A stretch of 64,000 nucleotides of DNA from an uncultured bacterium (GTDB taxonomy: Bacteria > Schekmanbacteria > GWA2-38-11 > J061). The DNA lies in the NCBI GenBank assembly GCA_964549305.1, contig CAZJVM010000004.1, positions 6,738-70,737 on the forward strand. Direction: 5' to 3'. Numbering within the stretch: the stretch's first letter is position 1; every line of letters starts with the position of its first letter. The notes beneath the pieces were generated by a model. It worked only from the letters and a program-made list of their open reading frames with translations, ran no database searches and was not told the origin of the DNA. Both the position numbers and the translations under genes were made by a program. Shown piece by piece: positions 31,045-46,474 of the stretch.

Positions 31045-32523
31045 TCAGGATTTTTTCACGAAGAGCTTTTTGGGGAGAATTGCTTTTACAAATATAAAGA
31101 ACATCTCTCTGAACATTATTTCCCCCCACGTTGAATAAACAAAGGGTCCCGTAAAGACATAAATCAGTTTGCTAATCGCAACCGCCTTCTTCCTGATGAG
31201 ATAATCAAAAAAAGGCCTTAAAAAAGGAATTTTGTTGTAGGCAGGTGTAAGATTTCTCATCGTTTCCGCAAAAGGTTTATCGTCAATGTTTATAAGTGAT
31301 GAACCGTGTGTTGTCCCAAGTCCTTCATTTACTCTTTCCATTGTTTCATTGTCGATATAACCGTTTTTCAAGCCGTATTCACACGCTTCAGTTTCGGGAT
31401 AGGGAAAAAATATCGACGCGTTCACTCCATCGCATTTTATCTTTTTCAAAAAATCGAGAGTATCGGACATTTGTTCGCGATTTTCCCCAACCATTCCGTA
31501 TATTACATTTACAAAAAGCTTTATTCCGCTTTCCCTGACCATCTTTACAGTTTCGAGAATCTTCTCCCTGTTAACATTTTTCTTCATTATTTTGTTCCGC
31601 ACAAAATCATTTCCCGAATCGAGCCCGTAAATCACACATTCACACGATGCATCCTTCATAGTTTTAAGCACTTTCGGGTTAACCGTCGATGGATGGACCT
31701 GACACAGAAAAGGAGCATTTATTTTACGGGCATATTCATCGCAAAAAACCGTAACCCAATCGTGGTTGAGAGTGAAAATATCATCAGCGAAAAACACCTT
31801 TTTGATACGGTAACGCTCATTAAAATAAATCAGTTCATCCATTACATTTTTAATGCTTCTTCTTCGCAGATGTTTCTCGCTTATACCGTATATTCTTTCC
31901 ATCTGATTGTTAAAACAGAAGGTACACCTGTAAGGGCATCCTCTGCCCGAAAGCACCGTAAGTATACCGGCAAAGGTATAGGGATAAAAAAGGTCTCTGT
32001 CGGGAAAAGGAATCGAATCTAAGTCTGTAATCAGCGGTCTGAGAGGGTTTTTTACTATTTCTCCGTCTTTTTTCATCCACAGATTTGGCACATTGGAATA
32101 ATCCTCTCCCTTCTCAATTTTATCGATAACTTCAATAAACCCCTCTTCGCCCTCGCCAATATATATCATATCTATATCGGGGTTTTTCAAAACATGCTCG
32201 GGAACGCTCGTTGGATGAATCCCGCCCATAATAACGGGTATGTCAAAGTTTTTCTTAACAAGTGATGCCATCTTCTTCGCGTAAGGGTACATAGGGGTAA
32301 CGCACGACAACGCGACAACATCGGGATTGATAATGCGGATTTGATTGATGAGTTTCTCGTTATTTTTTTCCCCTTTCAGGGATTCGAGGTTGTAAAACCC
32401 CATATAACTGTCGAAACCGGAGTTGAAAATGAGCTCAACCTCATGCCCCTTTTTTTTGAGGGTGCTCGAGAGGTATTGAATACCCAAACTTTCCTGTTCT
32501 TTGTAGAAAAATAATATCTTCAT
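31045..32523 (-). CDS. Cobalamin-binding (class B) radical SAM protein
   Basis: B12-binding N-terminus (SLGIQYLSS, GGIHPT, GEGE), GRGCPYRCTFC, DDIFT. Start inferred at 32523. Confidence 0.9.
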   Translation of the reverse strand: MKILFFYKEQESLGIQYLSSTLKKKGHEVELIFNSGFDSYMGFYNLESLKGEKNNEKLINQIRIINPDVVALSCVTPMYPYAKKMASLVKKNFDIPVIMGGIHPTSVPEHVLKNPDIDMIYIGEGEEGFIEVIDKIEKGEDYSNVPNLWMKKDGEIVKNPLRPLITDLDSIPFPDRDLFYPYTFAGILTVLSGRGCPYRCTFCFNNQMERIYGISEKHLRRRSIKNVMDELIYFNERYRIKKVFFADDIFTLNHDWVTVFCDEYARKINAPFLCQVHPSTVNPKVLKTMKDASCECVIYGLDSGNDFVRNKIMKKNVNREKILETVKMVRESGIKLFVNVIYGMVGENREQMSDTLDFLKKIKCDGVNASIFFPYPETEACEYGLKNGYIDNETMERVNEGLGTTHGSSLINIDDKPFAETMRNLTPAYNKIPFLRPFFDYLIRKKAVAISKLIYVFTGPFVYSTWGEIMFREMFFIFVKAILPKKLFVKKS

Positions 32524-32708
32524 AAATAAAAAAGTTTTTTGCAGATAAATCTCTACAACATTCGGCAAAACTTTACAAAAAAAAGATATTTAATAAAAAC
32601 ATTTCAAATTACCATGCCTGCAATAACTAATGTGAAATTATGAATTTTAACAATGCGTTATATTGAATCACCTAATTATTTAACATTTTTTTTCTGCCTT
32701 CTCCCGCC

Positions 32709-32733
32709 TAAACTTTTGTTTGACAAAAGTTTA
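32709..32733. promoter_or_regulatory. Perfect 11-3-11 inverted repeat (candidate operator)
   Basis: TAAACTTTTGT-TTG-ACAAAAGTTTA overlapping a TTGACA hexamer, 84 nt upstream of the oxidoreductase cluster. Confidence 0.5.
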
Positions 32734-32816
32734 AAATTCGGACAAAAGGTTATCTGTGTTCGAAAAAGAATTTTCCTGCCTTGACGCAGAATACATAAAT
32801 CTTTAAACAGTTTGAA

Positions 32817-33428
32817 ATGGAAAAGAAATTAAGTTATCCCGAAATCGAGTTTGAAGAAAGATTAAAGAGACTCAAACAAAAACAAAGGACAAAACTTCCT
32901 CATCAGATTGAACTCGAGACCACATCCAGGGTAAACCGAAGCGCACGCAAAAGCATTGGTGATTTGCCTATTTCCCTTGATTCTCTTACAAAAAGAAAAG
33001 ACGAGGCAACCGACAAAAAAATCCCCGCGGACCTCTTTAACTTGCAGATTATTTATGATGAAGCGACTGACAGTATCAAAATCGAAGGTCCTTCCGGTTC
33101 TCCCCTCATAGACGATAACACCTGCCTCATAGAGTTGACAAAAAATCTCGTCAGTTTTTCACAGTCGGAATCCTGCGGCGAATGCACTTTTTGCAGAATC
33201 GGCACAAAAAGAATGACGGAAATTCTCGAACGCATATGCTCGGGACAGGGCAACCCCGAAGACATTGAAACGCTGAAGGACCTTGCGGAAAAGATAAGGA
33301 CCACAAGTCTTTGCGAAGTAGGGAAAAACGCCTCAAATCCCGTAATAACAACAATCGAGCATTGCGGCGAAGACTATGATGAGCATATCAGGTCGCATAA
33401 GTGCAAAGCGGGAAAGTGTAATTTATAA
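32817..33428 (+). CDS. NuoF/HydB-type NADH_4Fe-4S domain protein lacking the FMN/NADH-binding core
   Basis: ESCGECTFCRIGT...SLCEVGKNASNPV...HIRSHKCKAGKC; the N-terminal ~90 aa are unrecognisable. Confidence 0.8.
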   Translation: MEKKLSYPEIEFEERLKRLKQKQRTKLPHQIELETTSRVNRSARKSIGDLPISLDSLTKRKDEATDKKIPADLFNLQIIYDEATDSIKIEGPSGSPLIDDNTCLIELTKNLVSFSQSESCGECTFCRIGTKRMTEILERICSGQGNPEDIETLKDLAEKIRTTSLCEVGKNASNPVITTIEHCGEDYDEHIRSHKCKAGKCNL

Positions 33429-33432
33429 AAAT

Positions 33433-35532
33433 ATGAAGAAGATTAAAATCACCATAGACGGAAAACGAATCGATGCCTCCGAGGGTCAGACTATCCTTTC
33501 GGCGGCAAAATCAAAGGATATTTTCATCCCCACATTCTGTCACCTTGACGACCTTAAACCCGAATCGTTCTGTTTTATATGCGTAGTGGATATCGAAGGT
33601 GAAGAAGACCTTCTTCCCGCCTGCTCGACTGAAGTCGAAGAAGGCATGGTAATAAGCACGACGAGTGAGAGAGTCCTCGAAGCGAGGCGCACCTGTGTGG
33701 AATTGCTTCTCTCCGACCATATGGGCGACTGCCTTGGACCCTGCATGATTGCATGCCCGGCGGGAATTGACATTCCCGGCTTTATAAAATATCTCGCCAT
33801 AGGCGAAACAAGAAAAGCGCTCGAACTAATTAAAAGGAATATGCCCTTCCCTTCCATTTTGGGAAGAGTCTGCAATAAACCCTGTGAAGATGCCTGCAGA
33901 AGACAGCTTGTGGAAGAAGAGCTCTCCATATGCCATCTGAAGCGGTTTGCCGCAGATACAATATCGGAATCGGATGAAGAATATATTCCCAGGCGTGCTC
34001 CCTCTACGGGGAAAAAGGTCGCCATTGCAGGAGCAGGCCCAACGGGACTTTCAACGGCTTATTACCTTCAGATTCTCGGACACGAATGCACTCTCTTTGA
34101 AGCCAACAAAAAACCGGGCGGAATGTTTCAATATGGAATACCCGCATATCGCCTGCCACGAAATGTTCTTGACAGGGAAATTGCAGTAATAAAAAAACTC
34201 GGCGCAAAGATTAAGTGCAATGTTTCTATTGGGGACGATATTCCCGCTGACTCCCTGCGGGACGAATATGATGCGGTCCTCATAGCAACGGGCGCACAGC
34301 TTCCCATTAAATTGTCAGTGGAAGGCGAAGACGCAAAGGGGGTAATCGCAGGCATTGATTTTCTTAAAGATGAAAGCTCCGGTAACGGAAAAGCCAAATT
34401 CGATAACAAAAAAGTGATAGTCGTCGGAGGAGGAGACGTTGCAATGGATGCTGCAAGAGTCGCCGTAAGAAAGGGAGCAAAGTCAGTTGATTTATACTGC
34501 CTTGAAAAAAGAGATGAAATGCCGGCAAGCGAAAAGGAAATAAAAGAGGCAGAGGAAGAAGGAATTGTTTTTCACGACAGATTAGGGATAAAATCCATCA
34601 GTTCCGAAAAAGGAAAAGTTGAAGGAATCGTATTTAAGAAATGTACATCGGTTTTTGATGACAGAGGAGCTTTCAATCCATCATATGATGAAAAGGACAC
34701 CTCTACCGCACAATGCGACATTCTCATTACGGCAATAGGACAGAAACCCGATGAAATTACCGGCAGTGACATAGATAAAACCCGAAGAGGAACCATAATA
34801 ATAAAGGGACACACCCACGAAACCTCCGTGGGTGGAGTTTTCGCGGGTGGAGACTGCGTAACCGGCCCGGGACTTGCCGTTGATGCCGTTGCCGCGGGAA
34901 GGCATTGCGCTGTAGCTATTGACCAGCTTTTAATGGGGGTCAACCTCATCGGCGAAGAACCCCCATACAGCGGTTCATACGGAGAACTTGACGAAGTGCC
35001 TCCCGAAACCGTTGAAGGCGAAGAAAGAGAACCCCGCGTACCTATTTCTTCTGCAGATGCAAAATCAAGAGTAAAATCATTTGATGAAATAGAGGAAAAT
35101 TACACTCCCGAAATGGCTCAGAAAGAGGCGCTCAGATGCCTTGAGTGCGGTTGCAGGGAATCGAGAGAATGCAAACTCAGAAGCTACGCCATCGAGTTTG
35201 ACGCCGACGAAGAAAAGTTCAAAGGCGAAACCAAGGAATATGAACTTGATGAATCTCACCCTGATTTAATTTATGAATCCCATAAATGTATTCAATGCAG
35301 AACCTGTGTAAGAACTACCGAAAAAATACTGGGAGAGTCGGCGATGAGAATCGTAGGGCGCGGATTTACGGCAAGAGTAAAGCCCGCTGAAGGAGGAAAG
35401 CTTGAACTTCTTAAAGGGAAAGAGCTTCACATAATAGCGGACAACTGCCCCGTGGGCGCGCTAAGGTTGAGAAACAAACCGGTTCAGTCCCTTGACCCGG
35501 AATTTAAAAGGAACGACGAGGAACGATGCTGA
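33433..35532 (+). CDS. [2Fe-2S] + GltD-like FAD/NAD(P)H oxidoreductase + C-terminal Fe-S domains
   Basis: NuoG/HydA-like N-terminus (IPTFCH...CFICVV...PAC), GltD motifs (CMIACPAG, LGRVCNKPCE, GAGPTG, GGGDVAMD, FAGGD), CLECGC...C, CIQCRTC...CPVGAL. Start inferred at 33433. Confidence 0.85.
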   Translation: MKKIKITIDGKRIDASEGQTILSAAKSKDIFIPTFCHLDDLKPESFCFICVVDIEGEEDLLPACSTEVEEGMVISTTSERVLEARRTCVELLLSDHMGDCLGPCMIACPAGIDIPGFIKYLAIGETRKALELIKRNMPFPSILGRVCNKPCEDACRRQLVEEELSICHLKRFAADTISESDEEYIPRRAPSTGKKVAIAGAGPTGLSTAYYLQILGHECTLFEANKKPGGMFQYGIPAYRLPRNVLDREIAVIKKLGAKIKCNVSIGDDIPADSLRDEYDAVLIATGAQLPIKLSVEGEDAKGVIAGIDFLKDESSGNGKAKFDNKKVIVVGGGDVAMDAARVAVRKGAKSVDLYCLEKRDEMPASEKEIKEAEEEGIVFHDRLGIKSISSEKGKVEGIVFKKCTSVFDDRGAFNPSYDEKDTSTAQCDILITAIGQKPDEITGSDIDKTRRGTIIIKGHTHETSVGGVFAGGDCVTGPGLAVDAVAAGRHCAVAIDQLLMGVNLIGEEPPYSGSYGELDEVPPETVEGEEREPRVPISSADAKSRVKSFDEIEENYTPEMAQKEALRCLECGCRESRECKLRSYAIEFDADEEKFKGETKEYELDESHPDLIYESHKCIQCRTCVRTTEKILGESAMRIVGRGFTARVKPAEGGKLELLKGKELHIIADNCPVGALRLRNKPVQSLDPEFKRNDEERC

Positions 35533-36038
35533 AGGATTTTAACAAAAAATTCGAAGACTATCTTAATGCCGACGGTGAACTTCAGCGAAGGCTAAAAGGA
35601 TTCAAGACCTTCTCCGGTATGCCTGACGGACATTACCGGAGGGCGCGGGAAGAAGGCGAAAAAGCCATTGCGCGCGCCGTAAGATGCTATCCCTACGGCG
35701 GGAAAAGTCTTATAGGAAATAACAATGATATTATCGGTATCGATATAAATGACAGCGATGAAAATATGTTGATTTCACTTGTTAACGGGAAGTTCAGCGT
35801 AAAAAAAAGCAATTGGCAAAAAACCTTTCTCTCAATCAGTCTTCCGCTTGAAAAATTTAAAAAAGCTATTCTTGGCAGATACCGTTGGATATGGCTTTTA
35901 GGGCTTGATGACGTAGAGGTTTCCTACTGCGAAGAACTTCCGCATTCCGATTGGATTACCATTCTTGAAATCCTCGTAGCAATGCAGGAATTACCCGAAT
36001 TCGACAACACGCTAATCGAAAAAGTAGAAGGTTTTTAG
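35526..36038 (+). CDS. Hypothetical protein with an SCP2 (sterol-carrier)-like segment
   Basis: IGIDINDSDENMLISLVNGKFSVKKSNWQKTFLSISLPLEKFKKAILG follows the SCP2 beta-beta-beta-helix pattern (by eye). Confidence 0.45.
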   Translation: MLKDFNKKFEDYLNADGELQRRLKGFKTFSGMPDGHYRRAREEGEKAIARAVRCYPYGGKSLIGNNNDIIGIDINDSDENMLISLVNGKFSVKKSNWQKTFLSISLPLEKFKKAILGRYRWIWLLGLDDVEVSYCEELPHSDWITILEILVAMQELPEFDNTLIEKVEGF

Positions 36039-36056
36039 GACAAAGGGAGAACAAAT

Positions 36057-37478
36057 TTGGACATAGTAATCGGACAACTTAACTCGATACTCGGCAAGGA
36101 TAACGTAATCACCGATCCGAATGAGCTTTCCGCATATTCAGACGGAAATCTCACTTTTATTCCTCCCCGTTCTCCGATTTTTGCCGTAAGACCCTCGAAT
36201 TCCGAAGAAATAAGAGAAATACTCAAGGTCGCCGCTTTAAACAAGATACCCGTAACTCCTTCGAGCTCCGCAGGGTCGGGACACGGAGGTTCCATTCCTG
36301 CGGTACCCGGCATTACAATTGACCTCAGACGTATGAAGAATATCGAACTTATCGACACATCGAGCAGAAACGCGATTATAGAACCGGGAGTCACCTTTTC
36401 CGAACTTCAGGAGAAAGCGCATGAACAGGGACTGAGAGTATTGACACCCGTTGAAATAACCGCCGGTTCATCGGTCCTTTCCACATATCTTGATATGGTG
36501 CCGCTTTTTTCATGGCCAAGATACGGAACGGAATCAATTCTCACAATGGAAACGCTCATTCCAAACGGCGAACTGATAAAAACAGGTATAGCGGCAATTC
36601 CCGTAATAGACAAACCCTATTTCCCCTTTGGCACAAACCCCTCTTACATCAACAAAATATGGTTCGGCGCTCAGGGGACTCTGGGCATTGCGACCAAAGC
36701 AGTGATAAAACTTAAAACACTTCACAAAACGGTTAAAACTCTCTTCATTCCCGTCAATAGTTTCGAAGAGTCCTTCCCCGTCTTGAAGGAGTTAAAGAGA
36801 TTCGGTTATGCTGTTGAATTTTTCCTTGCAAACCCCACATATCTTGCCGGAATGATTGCAGATGACGAACAGGAACTTTCCGAAATAGCCAAAACTCTGC
36901 CTCCTGTAACTGCCGTCATAGTACTTCGCGGTGAAGAGGAAGAGGTTGAATATCAGAGAGAGGACATCGCCGAGCTTTGCGCAAAATTCAAACTTGATTG
37001 TCTTGAAGAGCTTTCGGGAGTGGAAAATGCCGCTTCTAAAATACTCGATGAAATCGAAAATCCTGGCGGATATGAAAAGAGAAAAAGCTTCAAGGGAGGT
37101 TACTGCGTCATTCCTTTTATCTGTATGCTTCCGCAAATTCCAATGTTCAGACGTGTTTTGGGACAAATGACTCAGGCATTCAAGTATAATTCCGCCGATA
37201 TCGGAGAACTTTTCATACCTGTTGAACCTGCTCGCGGGCATTTTCAGTACAGTTTCCGCTATAATCCCGAAAATCCTCAGGAGATGATGATAACAAAAAA
37301 ACTTTTTGAGGTACTGAGCGGAGCGCTCATAAAAATGGGCGGATTTTTTTCGAGACCCTACGGAAACTGGGCGGAATTGGTCTATGGGAAAGCAGGTGCC
37401 TATAAAACAATGTTAAGAAATATCAAGGAAACAATTGACCCTGAAAATATAATGAATCCCGGAAGGTTAAATTTGTAG
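36057..37478 (+). CDS. FAD-binding oxidoreductase (FAD_binding_4, VAO/PCMH/GlcD superfamily)
   Basis: ITIDLRRMKNI, IIEPGVTF, GAQGTLGIATK, IDPENIMNPG. Confidence 0.88.
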   Translation: MDIVIGQLNSILGKDNVITDPNELSAYSDGNLTFIPPRSPIFAVRPSNSEEIREILKVAALNKIPVTPSSSAGSGHGGSIPAVPGITIDLRRMKNIELIDTSSRNAIIEPGVTFSELQEKAHEQGLRVLTPVEITAGSSVLSTYLDMVPLFSWPRYGTESILTMETLIPNGELIKTGIAAIPVIDKPYFPFGTNPSYINKIWFGAQGTLGIATKAVIKLKTLHKTVKTLFIPVNSFEESFPVLKELKRFGYAVEFFLANPTYLAGMIADDEQELSEIAKTLPPVTAVIVLRGEEEEVEYQREDIAELCAKFKLDCLEELSGVENAASKILDEIENPGGYEKRKSFKGGYCVIPFICMLPQIPMFRRVLGQMTQAFKYNSADIGELFIPVEPARGHFQYSFRYNPENPQEMMITKKLFEVLSGALIKMGGFFSRPYGNWAELVYGKAGAYKTMLRNIKETIDPENIMNPGRLNL

Positions 37479-37488
37479 GAAACAGAAT

Positions 37489-38688
37489 ATGACTGAAGAA
37501 TATTGCTACCCATTTACAAGAAAAAAACTCAGCGATTATTACGAAATGCTGTGGCGCTGCGCAAAGTGCGGTTATTGCCGCAATGTTTTCCCTTCTGATA
37601 CCGAAGACGAAAGATTCGCAAGGCAATGCCCACCGGGCGAAAGATTCAGATTTGAGGCGTACTACGCATCAGGACGTAACGAGATAACCAGAAAAATGAT
37701 TGAAGGCAAGCAGAGTCTCACTCCTCGCCTCAGGCACATCCTCTACACGTGCACAACCTGTAATGCCTGCGAAGAATGGTGCGAAGTGACACAGGGCTTG
37801 AATACCTTAAAGATAATCAATGCCGTTAGAAAATATTTTGTCGAGCACGGTGGTGAACTTTTGCCTGGCCACGAAAAAATCATCAAAGGCATCAGGCGAA
37901 ACCATAACCGCCTCAACAGAAATAACAGGGACAGGCGCGGATGGCTTGAAGATGCGGCATCCGAAAAAACTGAACAAGCCGATGTCGCCTATTTCGTAGG
38001 TTGCAGGTCATCGTTCAGAAGAACTGAAATAGCAAACAACGCCTACGAGCTTTTGACGAAAAAACTCGGTATCGGCATAACCTTTCTCGAGGACGAAAGA
38101 TGCTGCGGAAGGCCATTGCTTGAAATAGGGGCGGAAAAGGACGCTTTTAAACTCATGTCCCACAATCTTGAAGAAATAAAAAAAACCGGCGTAAAAACTG
38201 TCCTCTTTACCTGCGCCGAATGTTTCTCTCTCTTCAACGACCTCGAACGCTACGGCTTTGAAAAAGATTTTGAAACAATTCATATAAGCGAATATCTTGC
38301 AAGAGTGATAAAAGAAAAAGGTGTTTCCTTCAATGAAATGCCAAAAAAAGTAACATTTCACGACCCCTGCTATCTCGGAAGACATCAGGGCATTTATGAA
38401 GACCCGAGAAACGTAATCGCTTCCATTCCGGGCACCGAGCTTGTGGAAATGCCGAGAAACCGCAAAAATGCCTGGTGCTGCGGCGCGGGAGGCGTGGTGA
38501 AGGAAGCATATCTCGATTACTCTCATTGGATTGCCGCGGAAAGATTCGAGGAGGTCAAAAAAACCGAAGCACAAATGCTTATTACTTCCTGTCCCGGGTG
38601 CAAAGAAAGCTTATGGGGACAGGCTAAAGTCAATAATGTCGAAATCTTTGACCTTGCTGAACTTATAAACAAACAGATTAAGGGTTGA
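37489..38688 (+). CDS. (Fe-S)-binding CCG-domain protein (GlcF/HdrD-like)
   Basis: CAKCGYC..CP, CTTCNAC..WC, YFVGC, RCCG, TCAEC, HDPCYLG, WCCGAGG, SCPGC. Confidence 0.9.
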   Translation: MTEEYCYPFTRKKLSDYYEMLWRCAKCGYCRNVFPSDTEDERFARQCPPGERFRFEAYYASGRNEITRKMIEGKQSLTPRLRHILYTCTTCNACEEWCEVTQGLNTLKIINAVRKYFVEHGGELLPGHEKIIKGIRRNHNRLNRNNRDRRGWLEDAASEKTEQADVAYFVGCRSSFRRTEIANNAYELLTKKLGIGITFLEDERCCGRPLLEIGAEKDAFKLMSHNLEEIKKTGVKTVLFTCAECFSLFNDLERYGFEKDFETIHISEYLARVIKEKGVSFNEMPKKVTFHDPCYLGRHQGIYEDPRNVIASIPGTELVEMPRNRKNAWCCGAGGVVKEAYLDYSHWIAAERFEEVKKTEAQMLITSCPGCKESLWGQAKVNNVEIFDLAELINKQIKG

Positions 38689-38691
38689 TAA

Positions 38692-40185
38692 ATGGAAGAG
38701 TTTACAAAGGAAAACAGCCGGATTCTCTTTGAGCTGGCCAATATAGTGGGAAACGAGTGGGTGTCAAACGAACCGGAAATAATCTATGCCCATTCAAGAG
38801 ACGTCAATATGTATCCTGACAACCTGTCTTCCGTTTTGAGACCGCCTCATTATGTGGTGCTTCCGGCAAATTCGGAAGAAGTCCAGAAAATAGTAAGCAT
38901 AGCAAAAAACCACAAGATACCCATAACGGTCCAGACAACGGGACTGAACATTGCCGGAGTTTGCGTCCCTCCAAAGGGCGGCATTCTTATGGATATGAAA
39001 CGACTGGACAAGATTTTGGAAATAGACGAAGTAAATTGCACGGCTACCATACAACCTTACGTAACCATAGCTCGCCTTTCCTGCGAACTTCAAAAGAGAA
39101 AAATGTTCCTTCCTGTTCCGGGCAACCCCTCAACGGCAAGCGTTATTTCAAACATACTAGTAGGTCTCGGACTGAAAGTCACTAACCGTGTCGGAAGGCA
39201 GGAACAGGGAATCGTAGGGTTTAAAATGGTGCTTCCTGACGGAAGTTTCTTCAAGGTCGGTTCGGGCGCGGACCCCTTCATACCGAAAGATTTCTGGCCT
39301 CACGGACCGGGGCCCGACCTTCAGCTCTTTCCTGTACATTCCATAGGAACAACAGGAATAGTAACGGAAATGACTATTAAATGCTGGCTTCGCGGAGAAA
39401 AATACAAAGAACTCTGGGTGTCCTATGAAGATATAGACAATGCTGGGAAAGCTTTTGCGGAGCTTGCAAAAAAAGAAATCTGCAAGGGAATAAATCTTTA
39501 CGGTGGAAATAAATATACTTCTTACGCCACAGACACCCGTGAAGCAATGGAAAGGATGATAAGGGCAAACCCGGAATTTCAGCTTGTCCTGTCAATGGAA
39601 GGCACGCAAAGAAGAATTGATTATGAAGAAAAAGTTGTAAGACAGACGGCTGAAAAAACCGGAGGAATAATAATCACTGACAAATTCAAACCTTACGAAA
39701 GCTTCGAAGAATCTCACTTAGGAATGTCAGGAAGTTTTTATTCCGACTATTCAATGAAGTACTGGGGTTCAAGGGGTGCAAACTGGGTTGCAGCAGGTTT
39801 CCCGTCTCCTGAAAGAGTTGCTGATATGTACAAGGCATATTGTCAGGCGATAATGGACGACCCCGAATATTCAGACCCGGATTTCGGCAACGGTGAATAC
39901 TGGCGTTCGATTATCGCCTATCCCTATGAAGGAGGACATTATTTCTTTAACGAACACGGAATAGACAGCCATCCCGGAGACCCTAAATGGCAGGAAGTTG
40001 TCAAACGAATAGGTTCTGCAATACCCCGTTACGGAGCACAGCGAGGTCTGCTGATAATGGGATTTAACCGCGCACCGAGGGAAGGCCTGCCACGCGTCAC
40101 CGGTCCCTATTATGATGTCGCAAAGGGAATTAACAGCAAGCTTGACCCTGGGGGAATAATGCAGCCAGGATTCGTATTTCCTTAA
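38692..40185 (+). CDS. Second FAD-binding oxidoreductase (FAD_binding_4)
   Basis: GGILMDMKRLDKILEID, IQPYVT, GTTGIVT, LDPGGIMQPG. Confidence 0.88.
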   Translation: MEEFTKENSRILFELANIVGNEWVSNEPEIIYAHSRDVNMYPDNLSSVLRPPHYVVLPANSEEVQKIVSIAKNHKIPITVQTTGLNIAGVCVPPKGGILMDMKRLDKILEIDEVNCTATIQPYVTIARLSCELQKRKMFLPVPGNPSTASVISNILVGLGLKVTNRVGRQEQGIVGFKMVLPDGSFFKVGSGADPFIPKDFWPHGPGPDLQLFPVHSIGTTGIVTEMTIKCWLRGEKYKELWVSYEDIDNAGKAFAELAKKEICKGINLYGGNKYTSYATDTREAMERMIRANPEFQLVLSMEGTQRRIDYEEKVVRQTAEKTGGIIITDKFKPYESFEESHLGMSGSFYSDYSMKYWGSRGANWVAAGFPSPERVADMYKAYCQAIMDDPEYSDPDFGNGEYWRSIIAYPYEGGHYFFNEHGIDSHPGDPKWQEVVKRIGSAIPRYGAQRGLLIMGFNRAPREGLPRVTGPYYDVAKGINSKLDPGGIMQPGFVFP

Positions 40186-40207
40186 CATAAAAAAAGAGAG
40201 GATAAAA

Positions 40208-40972
40208 ATGAGATTTGATCATGTTATTGTCAGACTGACTACTATCACAGGACCTGAATGGCTTATGGCTTACGCTCTTGTTGACCTGAATGATGATGTT
40301 GATATTGACGAATTCAGATTTAAAATGCCTGACCTTCTTGATTACCACCATGAAACAGAAAAGTATTTAGGTGGTGTCCCGGGAGATCTTTTCCTTGGAT
40401 TTTTTGCCCACGGACAAACCCATCTGTTTGATGAAATAAGCAAAATTAAATCCTGGAAGGAGATTAAGCAGGTTAAAGAATGGGCAATCGTCAACTTTCC
40501 AACCACAAAGGTGAAGCTTTCAAAGCTTGACTGGAAAATTGTTAAAAGCCTTCGTACCGGCGCAGAAAAAACCCCGGAAACAATTGCAAAAGAGCTTGGT
40601 GAAAATCCTGAAATAGTGGCGAAACAGCTCGACTATATAAAAAATATTCCTCTAACTTTCCACATTGAACCTCCCAACAACAACAACTGGACATTTACGG
40701 AAATACACGTTGACTTCAAGGGAACGACTTTCAAGGAGAAGATGGAAGAACTTTCCAAAATAGGAAAACCCTTCGGCGCAACAGGCAGTAATAGCCAGGG
40801 TGCCTTAATGGTTCAGCCTGAAACAGTGGAAGAACTGAAAACAATGATAAAGAAGATTTCAGACATTCCCGGTGTGCGCGTGACCGATTATGCCTTCTGC
40901 GAAGATATGATATGGAAACAACCCTGGCTCGATAAATTCATAGATGAACAGATTGAGCAGGCAGAAGGTTAA
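40208..40972 (+). CDS. Lrp/AsnC-like regulator with a central wHTH
   Basis: Internal LSKLDWKIVKSLRTGAEKTPETIAKELGENPEIVAKQL matches the AsnC HTH pattern and is flanked by ferredoxin-like domains. Confidence 0.55.
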   Translation: MRFDHVIVRLTTITGPEWLMAYALVDLNDDVDIDEFRFKMPDLLDYHHETEKYLGGVPGDLFLGFFAHGQTHLFDEISKIKSWKEIKQVKEWAIVNFPTTKVKLSKLDWKIVKSLRTGAEKTPETIAKELGENPEIVAKQLDYIKNIPLTFHIEPPNNNNWTFTEIHVDFKGTTFKEKMEELSKIGKPFGATGSNSQGALMVQPETVEELKTMIKKISDIPGVRVTDYAFCEDMIWKQPWLDKFIDEQIEQAEG

Positions 40973-41057
40973 CTAAACAATCTTGTCAGATTATTTTTTT
41001 CTATATCCTCGTCACTAATAGTTTTTTGCATTCAACCTGTAAAATGAAAGGATTTTT

Positions 41058-42344
41058 ATGGCTGAAACAGCAAAGAAGAAGTTCATGGGAGTGGAAATCC
41101 CGGAAGGCCTGAAAAAAGCCAATTTTCTTGCTCTTTTTCTGGGTACGACACTTGGAGGACTAGTTACAAACTCTATTAACGCAATTCAGCACAGTTATTT
41201 GAAAGATTTTCTAAAAGTACCTCAGGAATCCTTCGGCACTGTAAGCGGTACATTAATGACTGTAGGAGAAATCGCGGCAATTATCTTCCTTTTTCTCTTT
41301 GGTGTAATCGCAGACAAGATAGGAAGAAAAACCGTTATTACAATCGGATATATTGGCGCGACATTTGCCTACCTCTTCTTTTTTCACAGCGTAGATATTG
41401 CCAATATGTTAGGCATAAACCCTCTGCCTTTAGCTTATGCAGGAAGATTTCTGATTGTTGCAACTGTTGCAGCCATCTGGGGCACATACATCATAGTCGC
41501 CGCAGACTATACAGATGAAGCAAACCGAGCAAAGGGTATGGGATTGAACGGTATATTCACGGGATTCGGTATGCTTCTGGCAATGGGAGTTTTTGCTTCT
41601 CTTCCAAATCAAATCGGCACAAGAAACACATTTTATTTTGTTGCCTGCCTTTCAGTTGCCTCACTTATTTATGCCCGCATAGCACTTGTTGACCGATTTA
41701 CCGCAGAAGAGAAGAAACCCGGCGATACGGGACAGGTTAGAAAAATAATCGATGCTCTTAAAAACTCTCCGCCCCTTGTAATGTGTTACGCGGCAAGATT
41801 TTTCGTAATGTCGGCGGTTATCACCGTAGGTACATTCATTTTTGTATGGGCAGTTAACGAAGCGCCCAACCTTGGCGTAAAACCGGAAGCGGCACAGATG
41901 AAAGTGGGAATGTTTATCGGGATATCAGGCCTTGTTGCATTTATAGGTTTTCCCGTATTTGCCATAATGTGTGACAAACTCGGAAGATACGTTACTTTAT
42001 CAATATCTCTCGGTCTTGCCGGAATATCACTAATCAGTTTCGGATTGATAGATAATCCGATTTCCTGGCCAATTCTTTTATGTATGATGGTTTTCTTCTT
42101 CAGTCAGGCGGGAATGCTTCTTTCATCGCAGACCCTCGCATCTGACCTTGCGCCAAAGGAAGTAATGGGAACGGTTCTCGGCGGATTAAATACCGTTGGA
42201 CAGATCGGCGCCGCTGTTTTTTTCTCAGTTGACGGCATTGCAATGGATAAGATAAGCCCTCAAGCTCCCTACGTAATAATGGGTGTTTGCTGTATCCTTA
42301 TGATAATCTGGGTCATGGGAATAGGCGTCAAAGTTAAAAAATAG
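41058..42344 (+). CDS. MFS transporter
   Basis: 12 TMs; motif A GVIADKIGRK and its repeat DKLGRY. Confidence 0.93.
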   Translation: MAETAKKKFMGVEIPEGLKKANFLALFLGTTLGGLVTNSINAIQHSYLKDFLKVPQESFGTVSGTLMTVGEIAAIIFLFLFGVIADKIGRKTVITIGYIGATFAYLFFFHSVDIANMLGINPLPLAYAGRFLIVATVAAIWGTYIIVAADYTDEANRAKGMGLNGIFTGFGMLLAMGVFASLPNQIGTRNTFYFVACLSVASLIYARIALVDRFTAEEKKPGDTGQVRKIIDALKNSPPLVMCYAARFFVMSAVITVGTFIFVWAVNEAPNLGVKPEAAQMKVGMFIGISGLVAFIGFPVFAIMCDKLGRYVTLSISLGLAGISLISFGLIDNPISWPILLCMMVFFFSQAGMLLSSQTLASDLAPKEVMGTVLGGLNTVGQIGAAVFFSVDGIAMDKISPQAPYVIMGVCCILMIIWVMGIGVKVKK

Positions 42345-42370
42345 ATACTTTCATATCAGTATTTTGAATA

Positions 42371-42405
42371 AAAAAAGAGGTGAGAATTTTTCTCACCTCT
42401 TTTTA
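42371..42405. terminator. Bidirectional intrinsic terminator between MFS and fprA
   Basis: AAAAAGAGGTGAGAA-TTT-TTCTCACCTCTTTTT. Confidence 0.9.
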
Positions 42406-42422
42406 CTTTTCTTCGGACTTTT

Positions 42423-43610
42423 TTACTGCTGTTTTATTCTGCAGGCAAGAATCTTTCCGATCTCCTCGAGCTTTTCAAAATCGCCGTTTAACGGAGGGCC
42501 GTTAACCTCACAGCTTCCCACAACTTCAACCTTCGCAAGCTCAAGGAGTTTAGTTACTTCCTTAACGGAACATCCGCCCCATCCGTAGGAACCCACAACA
42601 GCGGAATATTTAAGGGGAGGCCTGAATGCCCGAACAAGGCTTGCCGCATACAACGCGAGAGGATGGATACCGGCCATAACCGTAGGTGAACCGATTACAA
42701 TCGCTCTTGAATCGACAAGATCTTTTGCCACATCACCCGAGTCCGTCGCGGTAAGATTGTACATACTCACTTCAATACCTTCGGACAAGAGCTTTTCTGC
42801 CACCGCCTTAGCCATCTTCTCAGTAGACCCCCACATACTTACATAAGCAATAATGGCTTTCTCATCGGTTTCTCCGGCAGTCCATTTTTTATAAACAGAG
42901 ATAATTTTGTCAGGGTTTCTGTAAACCGGACCATGGCTTGGGGCAATCATGGATACTTCCATTCCTTCGAGTTTATCCATCGCCTTCTTTCCAAGGGCCC
43001 TGAAGGGCATCATTATTTCACCATAATATTTTTGTGCGCCGCTTACTATATCTTTTACATCAGTATCAAAAACTCCCTTTGCAAAGTGGCTTCCGAAAAA
43101 GTCACAGGGAAAGAGAATTTTGTCTTCAACCAGATAAGTGAACATCGTTTCAGGCCAGTGAAGCCAGGGAGCATCTATAAATTTCAGGGTCTTGCCGCCA
43201 AGGTCAATGGTCTCGCCTTCCTTTACCTTGATAATTCTGTCTGCAGGAGCATTATGCATAACCTCCGCCATTTTTGCTCCCTTCTCGGAAGTAACGAGCT
43301 TCGTTTTGCCGCTCATCTCCAATACATAGGGAATTGCTCCTGCATGGTCCGGTTCGGCGTGATTCATTACGATATAATCTATCTCTCCGTCACCGAGAAG
43401 CTGTTTTATCTTTCCGCCCAGTTCATCCTGAAAACAGGGTTTGATTGTCTCTATCAAAGCTGTCTTTTCGCTGCCCTTAACGATATACGAATTATAGCTT
43501 GTGCCATAGGGAGTAGGAATCAAAGCGTCAAAAAGCTTTAGGTCCCAATCCCTTGAGCCAACTGCATACACACCTTCCGAAATCTCAGGAATAGAATAGT
43601 TTTTCATCAT
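42423..43610 (-). CDS. fprA: Flavodiiron protein (FprA/NorV family)
   Basis: GTSYNSY, NHAEPDH, WLHWPE, CDFFGSH, PSHG, flavodoxin domain (YVSMWGST, IGSPT, GSYGWG). Confidence 0.95.
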   Translation of the reverse strand: MMKNYSIPEISEGVYAVGSRDWDLKLFDALIPTPYGTSYNSYIVKGSEKTALIETIKPCFQDELGGKIKQLLGDGEIDYIVMNHAEPDHAGAIPYVLEMSGKTKLVTSEKGAKMAEVMHNAPADRIIKVKEGETIDLGGKTLKFIDAPWLHWPETMFTYLVEDKILFPCDFFGSHFAKGVFDTDVKDIVSGAQKYYGEIMMPFRALGKKAMDKLEGMEVSMIAPSHGPVYRNPDKIISVYKKWTAGETDEKAIIAYVSMWGSTEKMAKAVAEKLLSEGIEVSMYNLTATDSGDVAKDLVDSRAIVIGSPTVMAGIHPLALYAASLVRAFRPPLKYSAVVGSYGWGGCSVKEVTKLLELAKVEVVGSCEVNGPPLNGDFEKLEEIGKILACRIKQQ

Positions 43611-43640
43611 TTCTCACCTCTGTTATTTAACGATAAATCT

Positions 43641-43657
43641 TATTGGAATTTCCAATA
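43641..43657. promoter_or_regulatory. Perfect 8-1-8 palindrome at the fprA transcription-start region (candidate operator)
   Basis: TATTGGAA-T-TTCCAATA, directly downstream of a minus-strand TTGACT-N18-CATAAG promoter (43658-43687). Confidence 0.5.
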
Positions 43658-43699
43658 CTTATGAACAATAAAAATTTAAAAAGTCAAGGCAAAGCTCAC

Positions 43700-43730
43700 T
43701 TTATACAGGAGTTTTTTAGTCCTGTATAAA
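43700..43730. promoter_or_regulatory. Perfect 11-9-11 inverted repeat between the divergent fprA and porin-tup promoters
   Basis: TTTATACAGGA-N9-TCCTGTATAAA. Confidence 0.45.
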
Positions 43731-43780
43731 TATAAAAACGAGACATTTCTAATTTGCCTTTACAAATTTTAAAAAAAAGT

Positions 43781-43809
43781 TTGACATTTCTGAGCCATTT
43801 ATGTAAATG
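43781..43809 (+). promoter_or_regulatory. Putative sigma70 promoter of the riboswitch/porin/tup transcript
   Basis: TTGACA-N17-TAAATG, about 20 nt upstream of the aptamer. Confidence 0.5.
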
Positions 43810-43830
43810 CCACGGAGAAACTGTAAACAA

Positions 43831-43925
43831 CTCCGAATTCAGTTACCTAATGTGCAGTTGCACGATGGTGCGGAATCGATAGGGTTATGCCGGAAACAGC
43901 ATAGCCTCCCGTATTTGGAAAGGAG
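43831..43925 (+). ncRNA. Moco-family riboswitch, P3-less (tungsten-cofactor-associated) variant
   Basis: CTCCGA..., CCTAA...ATGGTGC, AGGG, P4 GGTTATGC-CGGAAACA-GCATAGCC, TCCCGTATTTGGAAAGGAG 3' signature; CTCC/GGAG closes P1; lies upstream of tupABC. Confidence 0.88.
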
Positions 43926-44089: not shown

Positions 44090-45577
44090 ATGAAAAGATA
44101 TTTCAAGGCAGTTTTGTTATCAGCAGTATTCATTATATTATCGCCATTTTCATCATTTGCAGGGCAGAGCAGTCAGATAGAAGAACTCAAACAGCAGATG
44201 GAATCACTTAAACAGGAATATGAAGATAAATTCCAGCTTCTGCTTAACAAAATTGATGAGCTTAAATCCCAGCAGGAAGCAAAAGATAATGAAAACAGAG
44301 AAAGAATTAAAAAAGAAGTTGAAAATATAAAAGCTGTTGCCGTGCAGAAAGATGAGGAAAGAAAAAAAGAAATCACAGATCTCAAAACTGCGCTTGAAGA
44401 ACAAAAGAAAAAATCACTGCTTGCCGGCTTTGACGGAAAACACTTTACCCTTGGAAGTGCAGACGGCAACTTCAAACTTAATCTCGGCGGATATATGCAG
44501 ACGGATTACCGCTACTATGAAGGCGGAGAAGACGCAAATAATAAAAACACCTTTGATGTAAGAAGAGCAAGACTTACTGCAAGCGGCAATATGTCTAAAA
44601 ACATAAAGTACAAACTTCAGGCGGATTTCTCCGACGAGGTTGACGAGCTTCGCGATGCTTATGTAGATTTAAACTACACTCCTTTAGCTGTCGTACGTGC
44701 AGGTCAGTTCAAAGTACCTTTTGGCTATGAGCAGGTAACATCTTCGACTACATTTGACTTTATAGAGCGTTCCGTTGCAGGCAATTTCATCGCCTCAACA
44801 TCAAGAGATATAGGAGTAATGGTATTCGGTTCAGTCCTTGATAAACGCATTAATTACTACCTCGGAGCGTTTAACGGAACAGGTGAGAACATGACAGATG
44901 ACAACGACAGCCTTACTTTCATAGGAAGACTTCTCTTTTCTCCATTTGCGGATAATGAAGATTCCGTACTTCAGGGCCTGACATTCGGCGGTTCATTCTC
45001 CGGCGGAGACAGAGAAGCACACAGTTCAAGATCAATTACTCTTGCAGCATTAAATAAAATATCCAACACTGTAACCGTCAACGGACAGCGCACGAGAGCA
45101 GCAGCCGAAGCAAGATACTTCAACGGACCTTTTTCCCTTAAAGGCGAGTATTACTACCAGAGAGAGGAAAGAAACAACATTGGTGGCACTGATTTCGAAG
45201 ATCTCATCACGCAGGGTTTTTACGGCATAGCAACATACGTTCTTACAGGTGAAAAGAAGGTCGACAACGCAAATATCGTTCCTACGCACAACTTCAACCC
45301 TTCAACAGGCGAATGGGGCGCATTCGAGCTTGCGACAAGATACTCCTATTTTGACCTTGATAAAGCAAGCGGCACGGACCCTGTGCTTACAGATGAAAAT
45401 ATTGCGGCAAATACAGTTCAGGGCGTCACATTCGCGCTTAACTGGTATTTCAACAAATACCTGAAGCTTATGGCTGATTATTCCTTCTTCGATTTTGACA
45501 GGCAGGAGAACCTCTCACATCCTTCAATCGGAGACTCGACAAATCAGTTTTCCGCGCGCCTTCAGGTTAAGTTTTAA
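44090..45577 (+). CDS. OprO/OprP-family anion-selective porin with N-terminal coiled coil
   Basis: Signal peptide, ~85 aa heptad region, GGYMQTDY, FDVRRARL, GQFKVPFGYE, FIERS, RDIG, GAFELATRYS, LNWY, C-terminal Phe (RLQVKF). Confidence 0.85.
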   Translation: MKRYFKAVLLSAVFIILSPFSSFAGQSSQIEELKQQMESLKQEYEDKFQLLLNKIDELKSQQEAKDNENRERIKKEVENIKAVAVQKDEERKKEITDLKTALEEQKKKSLLAGFDGKHFTLGSADGNFKLNLGGYMQTDYRYYEGGEDANNKNTFDVRRARLTASGNMSKNIKYKLQADFSDEVDELRDAYVDLNYTPLAVVRAGQFKVPFGYEQVTSSTTFDFIERSVAGNFIASTSRDIGVMVFGSVLDKRINYYLGAFNGTGENMTDDNDSLTFIGRLLFSPFADNEDSVLQGLTFGGSFSGGDREAHSSRSITLAALNKISNTVTVNGQRTRAAAEARYFNGPFSLKGEYYYQREERNNIGGTDFEDLITQGFYGIATYVLTGEKKVDNANIVPTHNFNPSTGEWGAFELATRYSYFDLDKASGTDPVLTDENIAANTVQGVTFALNWYFNKYLKLMADYSFFDFDRQENLSHPSIGDSTNQFSARLQVKF

Positions 45578-45608
45578 ACAAACTTAAAATTAAATAAGGA
45601 AAATACAA

Positions 45609-46439
45609 ATGAAAATAAGATATAGATTTAATATCTTTTCAATTACTGTAATATTCGTTTTTGCTTTCGCTCTGCTATTTACTGCGCAGGTCAAGGCGGA
45701 AACAAGACTTAAAATGAGCACCACGACAAGCACTGAAAACTCAGGGCTGCTCTCTGTCCTTATCCCCCCCTTCGAAAAGGATAACGGTATTAAAGTGGAT
45801 GTAATTGCCGTCGGGACAGGAGCAGCTTTGAAGCTTGGAGAAAACGGAGATGTAGATGTCGTCTTTGTCCATTCACGCCCTGATGAAGATAAATTTGTCA
45901 GCGACGGGTTCGGAGTTTACCGTAAGGACGTTATGCACAATGATTTTGTAGTATTAGGTCCAAAAAAAGACCCTGCCGGGGTAAAGGGTTCGGTTTCAGC
46001 CTCAGAAGCTTTCAAAAAAATCTCTGAAACAGCATCACCATTTGTCTCAAGGGGCGACAATTCAGGCACCCACAAGAAGGAATTAATTGTATGGAAAAGT
46101 GCCGGAATTGACCCGAAAGGCAAATGGTATATAGAGGCAGGTCAGGGAATGGGTGCCGTTCTTCAGATAGCAGATGAAAAGCAGGGCTACACACTTTCAG
46201 ACAGAGGAACGTATCTTGCCTACAAGGATAAAATAGATATCTCAATAGTTTTTGAAGGAGATAAGGCATTATTCAATCCTTACGGGATTATTGCAGTTAA
46301 CCCTGAAAAACATCCGCATACTAAGTTTGAACTTGCAAAAAAACTGGTTGATTTTATAACCGGTCCCAAGGGTCAGAAAATTATAAAAGATTTTAAAATT
46401 AACGGCGAACAGCTTTTTTATCCCGATGCTGTTAAATAA
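45609..46439 (+). CDS. tupA: Tungstate ABC transporter substrate-binding protein
   Basis: TupA signature TTTSTENSGLL, GTGAAL, MHNDFV, SRGDNSGTH, YTLSDRGTY. Confidence 0.95.
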   Translation: MKIRYRFNIFSITVIFVFAFALLFTAQVKAETRLKMSTTTSTENSGLLSVLIPPFEKDNGIKVDVIAVGTGAALKLGENGDVDVVFVHSRPDEDKFVSDGFGVYRKDVMHNDFVVLGPKKDPAGVKGSVSASEAFKKISETASPFVSRGDNSGTHKKELIVWKSAGIDPKGKWYIEAGQGMGAVLQIADEKQGYTLSDRGTYLAYKDKIDISIVFEGDKALFNPYGIIAVNPEKHPHTKFELAKKLVDFITGPKGQKIIKDFKINGEQLFYPDAVK

Positions 46440-46474
46440 GGAATTAAACCGGTTCTTCAAAAAAATGAGCAGAG

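Follow-up and report, generated by a model that had tools for sequence, protein, structure and literature searches.

What reaction is served by two divergent flavoproteins whose genes lie together with those of an iron-sulfur protein, a lipid-carrier-like protein, and an NADPH-dependent electron transfer module? The question is raised by a locus in an uncultured bacterium of the candidate phylum Schekmanbacteria (NCBI GenBank assembly GCA_964549305.1; 2.94 Mb in 169 contigs). The DNA analyzed here, referred to as the window, is a stretch of 64,000 nucleotides (nt) of contig CAZJVM010000004.1 (positions 6,738 to 70,737 of the forward strand), and coordinates given without a contig or locus label refer to it. 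An initial annotation made from the sequence placed at 35526 to 42344 a putative anaerobic catabolic module for a hydrophobic substrate, consisting of an SCP2-like protein, two flavin adenine dinucleotide (FAD) oxidoreductases (here FAD-A and FAD-B), a CCG-type iron-sulfur protein, a regulator, and a major facilitator superfamily (MFS) transporter. Our results indicate that these genes are part of a longer operon, six of whose eight genes would encode one soluble multisubunit oxidoreductase. In this enzyme, a core resembling GlcDEF is predicted to be joined to an SCP2-fold subunit and to a wire for NADPH electrons derived from a bifurcating transhydrogenase.

RESULTS

Eight genes form one operon

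All six genes described previously were recovered in their original positions and order on the plus strand by open reading frame (ORF) listing and by Pfam and NCBIfam scans (Table 1). The borders had to be moved, as the unit begins upstream at 32817 and the two genes at 32817 to 35532 belong to it. Along the row of eight, the intergenic distances are 4, -7, 18, 10, 3, 22, and 85 nt; the last five are those within the original gene set, whose tight spacing was thus reproduced. The first distance assumes that the gene for the 718-residue protein starts at Met20 (nt 33433), and the negative value is the overlap of the end of this gene with the start of the SCP2-like gene. As listed (33376), the 718-residue ORF would overlap the preceding gene by 53 nt. 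Because every solved relative aligns from residue 20, translation probably begins at the ATG at 33433, 4 nt past the upstream stop codon.

Only one strong terminator is present in the region from 32300 to 43900. It lies directly after the MFS gene, is common to the row and to a convergent gene for a flavodiiron protein, and has no counterpart inside the row. Since the genes are separated by short gaps or overlap, no terminator intervenes, and the row is kept in relatives, the eight genes at 32817 to 42344 constitute one operon.

Table 1 Genes of the operon and the terminator that follows it (window coordinates)
Feature	Position	Strand	Matches and support
203-aa iron-sulfur protein, NuoF/StnB-type C-terminal [4Fe-4S] domain	32817..33428	+	NADH_4Fe-4S (Pfam, 3.8e-29)
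StnC/NfnA(Bfu)-like NADPH-binding flavoprotein, 718 aa (699 aa from M20)	33376..35532	+	Fer2_4, Fer4_20, Pyr_redox_2, Fer4_Nqo3
SCP2-fold small subunit, 170 aa	35526..36038	+	Pfam: none above threshold; model and Foldseek
FAD-A, VAO/PCMH-fold flavoprotein, 473 aa, subunit in the GlcD position	36057..37478	+	FAD_binding_4 and weak FAD-oxidase_C tail
HdrD/GlcF-like iron-sulfur (CCG) subunit, 399 aa	37489..38688	+	Fer4_8 and two CCG domains
FAD-B, second VAO-fold flavoprotein, 497 aa	38692..40185	+	Full-length FAD_binding_4 (7.9e-26)
254-aa protein, possible AsnC-type helix-turn-helix regulator	40208..40972	+	No match in Pfam or PDB
MFS transporter, 428 aa	41058..42344	+	MFS_1 (1.6e-42)
Strong hairpin terminator	42372..42404	+	15-bp stem, then a T-run

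The 170-aa protein has an SCP2 fold

A sequence search of PDB with the 170-aa protein gave no match. When the protein was modeled with AlphaFold2 (AF2) on its family alignment, the model reached a pLDDT of 83.8, and the top 28 Foldseek matches in PDB were all SCP2 domains, each with a probability of 1.00. They include the SCP2 protein UbiJ (6h6o, 5e-5), Thermus SCP2 (2cx7), and the C-terminal domain of alkylsulfatases. The Pfam family SCP2 (PF02036) is also matched by 10 of the 29 members of the protein's own family (best E value, 1.5e-5), and the fold proposed in the initial annotation is thereby borne out.

The only poorly modeled part is an inserted loop of 35 residues (approximately residues 27 to 60), which is at the same time the most conserved sequence of the family (GFKTFSGxPDGHYxRAR...RAVRCYPFGG) and may serve as a docking element. 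The family is rare, with 29 representative clusters in 1.84 billion proteins. Its hidden Markov model (HMM) matches solely ORFs directly upstream of FAD-A genes, and solely those of one subclade of the flavoprotein tree described below (subclade i), which includes archaea. Most likely, the 170-aa subunit binds an apolar substrate and presents it to the flavoproteins.

In one orthologous locus (L113, 10615 to 11196), the SCP2-like gene and FAD-A are separated by a gene for a PNPOx-like flavin-binding protein (193 aa), approximately 10 paralogs of which occur elsewhere in this genome.

FAD-A and FAD-B are not standard GlcD or lactate dehydrogenase subunits

The initial annotation had pointed to four motifs that distinguish the two flavoproteins from GlcD and D-lactate dehydrogenase. 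All four are present: GGFFSRPYG (residues 428 to 436) and PSSSAGSGHGG (68 to 78) in FAD-A, and GLLIMGFNR (452 to 460) and VQTTGLNIAG (80 to 89) in FAD-B. When they are aligned (MAFFT) with six GlcD-like proteins and Escherichia coli GlcD, the GlcD metal motif GG(S/T)I(S/T)GEHG coincides exactly with GGFFSRPYG and GLLIMGFNR, the position claimed for them, and the GHAGDGNxH motif is missing in both flavoproteins. The ligands in GHAGDGNxH ... GEHG are invariant in GlcD and the six GlcD-like proteins. From this His/His/Glu site, FAD-A keeps no residue and FAD-B a single His (H416).

These results bear on the simplest explanation, that the enzyme is an ordinary but divergent glycolate, D-lactate, or D-2-hydroxyacid dehydrogenase of the GlcDEF/Dld-II type. 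Such enzymes share the three-subunit architecture, and the GlcD model TIGR00387 is the top NCBIfam match of both flavoproteins, but at 71 bits (FAD-A) and 101 bits (FAD-B) against a cut-off of 567.9; the scores with NF008408 are 42 and 73 bits, respectively, against a cut-off of 897. FAD-A and FAD-B are 24% identical to each other and 20 to 25% identical to GlcD and GlcE (22% for FAD-A and E. coli GlcD). Solved structures match both proteins over the FAD domain only, with E values of approximately 1e-20 for p-cresol methylhydroxylase (PCMH), vanillyl-alcohol dehydrogenase, LctD, and D-LDH. FAD-B, the best-conserved subunit (70 to 75% identity to orthologs, versus 57 to 59% for FAD-A), models as a complete two-domain fold of the vanillyl-alcohol oxidase (VAO) family, unlike the 350-aa GlcE. 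The D-lactate dehydrogenase mLDHD is among its best Foldseek matches. However, mLDHD, vanillyl-alcohol dehydrogenase, EUGO, and PCMH are all matched with template modeling (TM) scores of 0.65 to 0.70, and the comparison does not separate folds like D-lactate dehydrogenase from those like vanillyl-alcohol oxidase. Nothing in these comparisons supports the earlier suggestion that one flavoprotein is non-catalytic, in the manner of a GlcE-like partner as we understand it, yet this may be the case.

The 399-aa CCG subunit contains two complete ferredoxin-type CxxCxxC..C motifs and two complete HdrB-type motifs, Cx32CCx35CxxC (residues 172 to 245) and Cx35CCx36CxxC (294 to 371). Its best NCBIfam matches, TfrB (191 bits) and LdhH, are both below the cut-off, and the GlcF model NF008434 gives 54 bits against a cut-off of 333; the identity to GlcF is 20%. 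The best solved relative is 9ojn_A (1.3e-29), and matches to HdrB are weak.

A maximum-likelihood tree of 67 flavoprotein sequences, with support values from the Shimodaira-Hasegawa-like approximate likelihood ratio test (SH-aLRT), contains a FAD-A-like clade of 35 sequences (support, 100) and a FAD-B-like clade (95). Both lie apart from E. coli GlcD and GlcE and the generic GlcD-like proteins (98). Each of the two clades splits, in parallel, into subclades i and ii. Subclade i comprises this operon, related loci L001, L007, L009, L010, L012, and L017, and the Ignisphaera locus L005; subclade ii comprises two further copies from this genome together with the Asgard loci and the sequences from Desulfobacterium TRIP, Hadesarchaea, and Acidobacteriota. 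Such parallel splits are as expected for long-standing partners. With HMM scores far below the cut-offs, the metal ligands absent, and the clades separate, and with an SCP2 subunit and an NADPH wire that are foreign to glc operons, we consider a hydroxyacid dehydrogenase extremely improbable, in agreement with the initial annotation, which had set the enzyme apart from standard GlcDEF and lactate dehydrogenases.

The two upstream genes encode a reduced StnB/StnC pair

The 718-residue protein matches 9bov_A (557 bits), StnC (8oh5_C, 510 bits), and NfnA of NfnABC (9n5u_A, 503 bits), in alignments that span residues 20 to 703 of the query and 1 to 677 of the chains. It consists of a NuoG-type [2Fe-2S] domain, a GltD-type FAD/NADPH core with two [4Fe-4S] clusters, and further NuoG-type clusters, and ends at the equivalent of StnC residue ~690, without the FdhF-like C-terminal domain. 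The best matches of the 203-aa protein, which has a CxxCxxC motif at residue 120, cover residues ~391 to 524 of 9bov_B, StnB (8oh5_B), and 9n5u_B, so that the two proteins match partner chains of the same three PDB entries. Pfam finds only NADH_4Fe-4S in the 203-aa protein and no flavin mononucleotide (FMN)/NADH domain (Complex1_51K), and the ORF listing of the operon contains no NuoE-like (StnA) gene.

In StnABC of Sporomusa ovata (8oh5), residues 1 to 101 of StnC carry a [2Fe-2S] cluster, residues 102 to 565 form the GltD-type FAD/NADPH domain with two [4Fe-4S] clusters, and residues 683 to 1172 form an inactive FdhF-like domain; electrons pass along a linear path from the FAD over clusters C7-C6-C5-C4-C3 and the StnB cluster B1 to the FMN at which bifurcation takes place (PMC10482914). 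The upstream pair retains the NADPH site and the chain of clusters through B1, and the FMN/NADH domain, StnA, and the FdhF-like domain are gone. The pair is therefore best read, from its domain composition, as a cut-down StnB/StnC that would connect NADP(H) with iron-sulfur clusters without bifurcating.

Its origin from the bifurcating Stn/NfnABC system raises the possibility of a different reading, namely, a bifurcating or confurcating complex in which one of three flavins splits electron pairs, with ferredoxin and a hydrophobic substrate of high potential as the two ends and NADPH at medium potential. The complex would have the three flavins and many clusters for this purpose, flavin-based electron bifurcation has been proposed for a related triad from a benzene culture (PMC13416013), and one related locus (L125, described below) combines NuoE, full-length NuoF, a NuoG-like protein, and a flavoprotein of the geranylgeranyl reductase (GGR) family. 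However, what is missing here (StnA and the FMN/NADH domain of StnB) is exactly what bifurcates in Stn, the FAD of StnC has been shown not to bifurcate (PMC10482914), and the operon has no ferredoxin gene. We regard bifurcation by this complex as improbable.

The row of genes is conserved in anaerobic bacteria and archaea

Triads of flavoprotein, CCG, and flavoprotein genes are widespread in anaerobic bacteria and archaea, and the genome studied here (G000) carries three. The FAD-A family as a whole counts more than 300 members. The two further copies, on contigs C16 (G000:C16:43254-47686, or L099 9254 to 13686) and C69 (L100 3 to 8486, minus strand), are 27 to 43% identical to the operon copy. 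Ahead of the C69 triad stand genes for a ferredoxin, for a GltD-like protein (568 aa), and for two Cys-bearing paralogs with 185 and 188 aa; the last two occupy the place of the SCP2-like gene but have no Pfam match and are not SCP2-like by the family HMM. Among five species genomes of the candidate phylum, the SCP2-like gene occurs in three, all belonging to the family of this operon. A profile search of genome contigs with the FAD-A alignment yielded ~11 true family members among the 80 matches listed. The pattern DPxNIMNPG used in that search is generic for GlcD-like proteins, and the close orthologs came from a lookup of the encoding contigs and a metagenome scan.

Gene order was compared in L001, L007, L008, and 17 metagenome loci identified by means of the 170-aa family. 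The complete row of NuoF-C, StnC-like, SCP2-like, FAD-A, CCG, and FAD-B genes is kept in every related locus whose DNA reaches far enough, namely, in L001, L007, L008, L103, L106, L110, L113, a genome of the same genus (G003), and a contig of 9255 nt. In the same-genus genome, the whole row is kept through the MFS gene, together with the genes for the flavodiiron protein and a porin, and a genome of the same family (G004) keeps the row from the SCP2-like gene through FAD-A, CCG, FAD-B, and the 254-aa protein to the MFS gene. These comparisons support conservation of the cluster across anaerobic bacteria and archaea.

Upstream of the row, L001, L007, and L113 carry genes for a BNR/Ycf48-like protein, an MMPL-type RND protein, DUF1302, DUF1329, and usually a PTE-family protein; L009 has the same BNR/RND/DUF1302/DUF1329 envelope module on the downstream side. 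In Pseudomonas, mutants in genes of this kind (DUF1302/DUF1329 together with BNR and RND genes) show phenotypes on fatty esters (bioRxiv 10.1101/2020.07.04.188060). Downstream, L001, L007, and L113 encode a NuoG-like [2Fe-2S]/ferredoxin protein followed by one to three distant GGR-family flavoproteins, and L113 also encodes a 661-aa tungsten aldehyde oxidoreductase (AOR). The neighbors in the archaeal loci are either alcohol dehydrogenase (ADH), AOR, and aldehyde dehydrogenase genes or MFS, canonical SCP2, and aldehyde dehydrogenase genes. The SCP2-like subunit and the envelope module, which adjoins the operon in four independent relatives, make the hydrophobic substrate of the initial annotation plausible; its narrower assignment to lipids or aromatics is still conjecture.

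Tandem duplications of the triad are present in a Desulfobacterium metagenome-assembled genome (MAG) from the phenanthrene-degrading TRIP culture (L013, 5461 to 13872) and in a Thermodesulfobacteriota MAG (L017, 5042 to 13950).

The 254-aa protein, the MFS transporter, and neighboring genes

The 254-aa protein is at most a putative regulator. The protein itself has no match in the databases searched (Table 1), and of its 27 homologs, which make up a rare family, one contains HTH_AsnC (PF13404). The family adjoins the operon in the same-genus and same-family genomes, in L124, and in the 9255-nt contig. A homolog also ends a different row in a Myxococcota MAG (contig Ga0392394_0000349, L125 1776 to 8762), where it follows genes for a ferredoxin, a NuoE-like protein, a full-length NuoF, a NuoG-like [2Fe-2S]/ferredoxin protein, and a GGR-like flavoprotein; this arrangement resembles a bifurcating module of the Bfu type (HydBC-like) that is joined to a GGR-like reductase.

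The MFS transporter has MamH as its best NCBIfam match, with 226 bits against a cut-off of 300, and no other magnetosome genes were seen in the window. Its gene follows that of the 254-aa protein in the same-genus and same-family genomes; L005 and L010 have different MFS genes close to their triads. The MFS gene of this operon is a partner within the candidate phylum only. Both genes stand in the row, as initially described, but as lineage-specific partners outside the universal core.

On the minus strand between a pilus-locus gene and the operon lies a gene for a B12-binding radical-SAM protein (31045 to 32568) whose best match is HpnJ (155 bits, below the cut-off). It was considered as a member of the operon and rejected, as its orientation is opposite to that of the row and the same-genus genome does not have it at this position; the latter suggests a recent gain or loss. 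Two kilobases downstream of the operon, at 44090 to 48158, there is a riboswitch-controlled operon for tungstate uptake. This fits the richness of the genome in AOR genes, of which there are 11, along with at least 8 distant GGR-like genes (examples from the two groups are at C25:33663-35438, C104:2746-4626, C5:36875-38695, and C4:2474-4336). Several of these genes adjoin each other or PNPOx-like genes.

DISCUSSION

A proposed function for the operon

We propose that six of the eight genes of the operon encode one soluble multisubunit oxidoreductase. Its catalytic core would be a GlcDEF-like heterotrimer of FAD-A and FAD-B, which diverged anciently, and the HdrD/GlcF-like CCG subunit with its motifs for non-cubane clusters. 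The SCP2-like protein would be a clade-specific fourth subunit that presents an apolar substrate, and the upstream pair would pass electrons one at a time between NADP(H) on the one side and the CCG subunit and the flavins on the other. Electrons would run along the StnC-type chain (C7-C6-C5-C4-C3) to the NuoF-C cluster (B1) and the CCG clusters, which would exchange them with the flavoproteins. The MFS transporter may import the substrate, and the 254-aa protein may control the operon.

The direction of this path decides what the enzyme does. The initial annotation had proposed an anaerobic catabolic dehydrogenase. The heteromeric, non-standard flavoenzyme stands, but the NADPH-linked genes upstream make oxidation only one of two possible directions. 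The reduction of NADP+ by dehydrogenation of C-H bonds or alcohols is thermodynamically uphill. On account of the thermodynamics, the NADPH-type module, and the co-located GGR-like reductases, we favor the opposite direction, with confidence that approaches but does not exceed an even chance: an NADPH-driven reduction of a hydrophobic and likely unsaturated compound, such as an isoprenoid, a lipid, or an aromatic.

The reverse direction, an oxidative, catabolic dehydrogenase for an alcohol-type substrate with NADP+ as acceptor, is less likely, but not by much. In such an enzyme, a hydrophobic alcohol, ether, or alkyl-aromatic compound brought into the cell would lose a hydride to a VAO-type flavin. 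The electrons would then flow by way of the CCG subunit and the Stn-type wire to NADP+ (in lineages that have no wire, to ferredoxin), and the resulting aldehyde would be removed by AOR or aldehyde dehydrogenase. The combination of an MFS transporter and a putative regulator is typical of catabolic operons, and both the 11 AOR genes of this genome and the nearby tungstate uptake operon would suit an aldehyde-forming pathway. On the other side, NADP+ (approximately -320 mV) is a poor acceptor for electrons from the oxidation of alcohols or C-H bonds (approximately -200 mV or higher), GGR-like reductases are co-located in the orthologous loci, and the operon encodes no cytochrome, quinone-binding, or membrane subunit.

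Several observations nevertheless weigh against an NADPH-driven reduction or against parts of the complex that we propose for it. Most enzymes of the VAO/PCMH family and the GlcDEF type are dehydrogenases (PMC13101534). Aldehyde dehydrogenase, ADH, and AOR genes stand beside the triad in L005, L008, L010, and L113 and would suit an oxidation that yields an aldehyde equally well. Nor is the NADPH module an obligatory part, as no ortholog of it was found genome-wide in the same-family genome, and the archaeal loci are without it. Homologs of the RND/DUF1302/DUF1329/PTE module were not found in the genome studied here, so that this context holds for the relatives only. Finally, the 170-aa protein itself scores 16.2 bits against a Pfam SCP2 gathering threshold of 21.3, and the AF2 model of FAD-B is of moderate confidence (pLDDT, 68).

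Significance of the SCP2-bearing subclade

The triad as such had been noticed before; what is new is a subclade of GlcDEF-like triads that is distinguished by a subunit of the SCP2 fold and by a wire for NADPH electrons salvaged from another enzyme. A search of the literature on combinations of GlcD, GlcF, and SCP2 or of VAO-type flavoproteins and heterodisulfide reductase found nothing relevant. A far-reaching, rather doubtful possibility is that the SCP2-bearing subclade is an unrecognized class of oxygen-independent enzymes that transform lipids or hydrocarbons and are fed by SCP2 and driven by NADPH through the wire of a transhydrogenase. An isoprenoid chain, an ether lipid, or an aromatic hydrocarbon would then be handed over by a dedicated SCP2 subunit. 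If this were true, the operon would encode an experimentally tractable sister of the enzyme that is suspected to activate benzene in the absence of oxygen, and its elucidation would show what chemistry the triad family as a whole performs. Triads of this family are common among anaerobic bacteria and archaea of sediments. The subunit with a lipid-carrier fold narrows the substrate to something apolar, and the NADPH module provides a simple spectrophotometric read-out for substrate screening; together, they make the flavin-based anaerobic transformation of inert hydrophobic molecules testable in a recombinant system.

Comparison with known systems

Like the SCP2 carriers UbiJ and UbiT of ubiquinone biosynthesis, Thermus thermophilus SCP2, and the C-terminal domain of alkylsulfatase, the 170-aa protein has the alpha/beta SCP2 fold and would serve as an accessory to enzymes that act on apolar molecules. 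It differs from them in sequence (7 to 17% identity), in its conserved 35-residue insert, and in having VAO-type flavoproteins as partners.

Among the Stn/NfnABC transhydrogenases, the 718-residue protein corresponds to StnC residues 1 to 677, with the [2Fe-2S] domain, the GltD-type FAD/NADPH core, and clusters C3 to C7, and the 203-aa protein corresponds to the B1 cluster domain of StnB. Whereas Stn/NfnABC itself forms a transhydrogenase, the pair in this operon, which lacks the FMN/NADH domain, StnA, and the FdhF-like tetramerization domain, precedes the genes of a substrate-converting flavoenzyme. The operon would be a clean example of modular evolution, with the electron wire of a bifurcating transhydrogenase attached to a different enzyme.

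The 4-phenol oxidoreductases, PCMH and VAO/EUGO, are the best sequence matches of the FAD domain of FAD-A (8s7r and 1dii). FAD-A shares with them an SSGxN-type flavin loop and has a conserved Arg (R433 in SRPYG) at the position of R504 of VAO. In contrast, the Tyr that precedes this Arg is Ser in FAD-A, no His or Tyr for covalent attachment of FAD is invariant in the FAD-A family, the operon has no cytochrome subunit, and the cap domain shows no detectable sequence similarity to that of the solved members.

With GlcDEF of E. coli, the enzyme has in common two flavoproteins of the VAO family and an iron-sulfur subunit with Fer4_8 and two CCG domains. Besides the low identity and the missing metal site, the differences are that FAD-B is a full two-domain protein, that the genes are in a D-F-E-like rather than D-E-F order, that the SCP2 subunit and the NADPH wire have no counterpart, and that the electron partner is soluble and would be wired to NADPH, whereas GlcDEF delivers electrons to the quinone pool.

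The order of FAD oxidoreductase, CCG iron-sulfur protein, and FAD oxidoreductase is shared with triads from benzene cultures. Proteins #24 to #26 of "Ca. Anaerobenzenivorax" ORM2a (called "Magic"; WAC08368-70), a FAD-binding oxidoreductase, an iron-sulfur protein, and a FAD-binding oxidoreductase, are the three most abundant proteins in a methanogenic benzene culture and were modeled as a GlcDEF-like heterotrimer with ≤23% identity to GlcDEF; ORM2a coexpresses a porin/RND "Nanopod" cluster (Toth et al. 2026, PMC13101534). The proteins BzS1_12970/80/90, likewise the most abundant of an anaerobic benzene degrader, account for about one-fifth of the proteome (Musat et al. 2026, PMC13416013). Compared by architecture alone, these triads and that of the operon both have a first flavoprotein with a PCMH-type FAD domain and a FAD-oxidase_C tail and a second one in which Pfam finds only the FAD domain, also of the PCMH type. 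Both are about 20 to 25% identical to GlcDEF, occur in strict anaerobes, and are linked to an RND/porin envelope cluster, which in the case of this operon is the RND/DUF1302/DUF1329 module of four relatives.

This likeness raises the question of whether the operon enzyme activates hydrocarbons as proposed for the ORM2a and BzS1 proteins, by a radical or flavin coupling of an unactivated aromatic ring to a cosubstrate. We consider this very improbable. Genes for CoA ligase, MaoC dehydratase, CoA transferase, and beta-oxidation, which accompany the benzene clusters, are absent beside this operon, whose neighbors are instead genes for NuoF-C, StnC-like, SCP2-like, 254-aa, MFS, and flavodiiron proteins. 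Conversely, neither of the two papers mentions an SCP2-type subunit or a StnB/StnC-derived NADPH module, and the second flavoprotein of the benzene triads is larger (65.8 kDa). Homologs that are 23 to 42% identical to the BzS1 proteins in organisms that do not degrade benzene "likely serve other metabolic functions" (PMC13416013), and the role of the benzene proteins is itself a proposal. What the comparison demonstrates is a shared architecture. The enzyme of this operon would be a distant cousin of the one suspected of the anaerobic attack on benzene.

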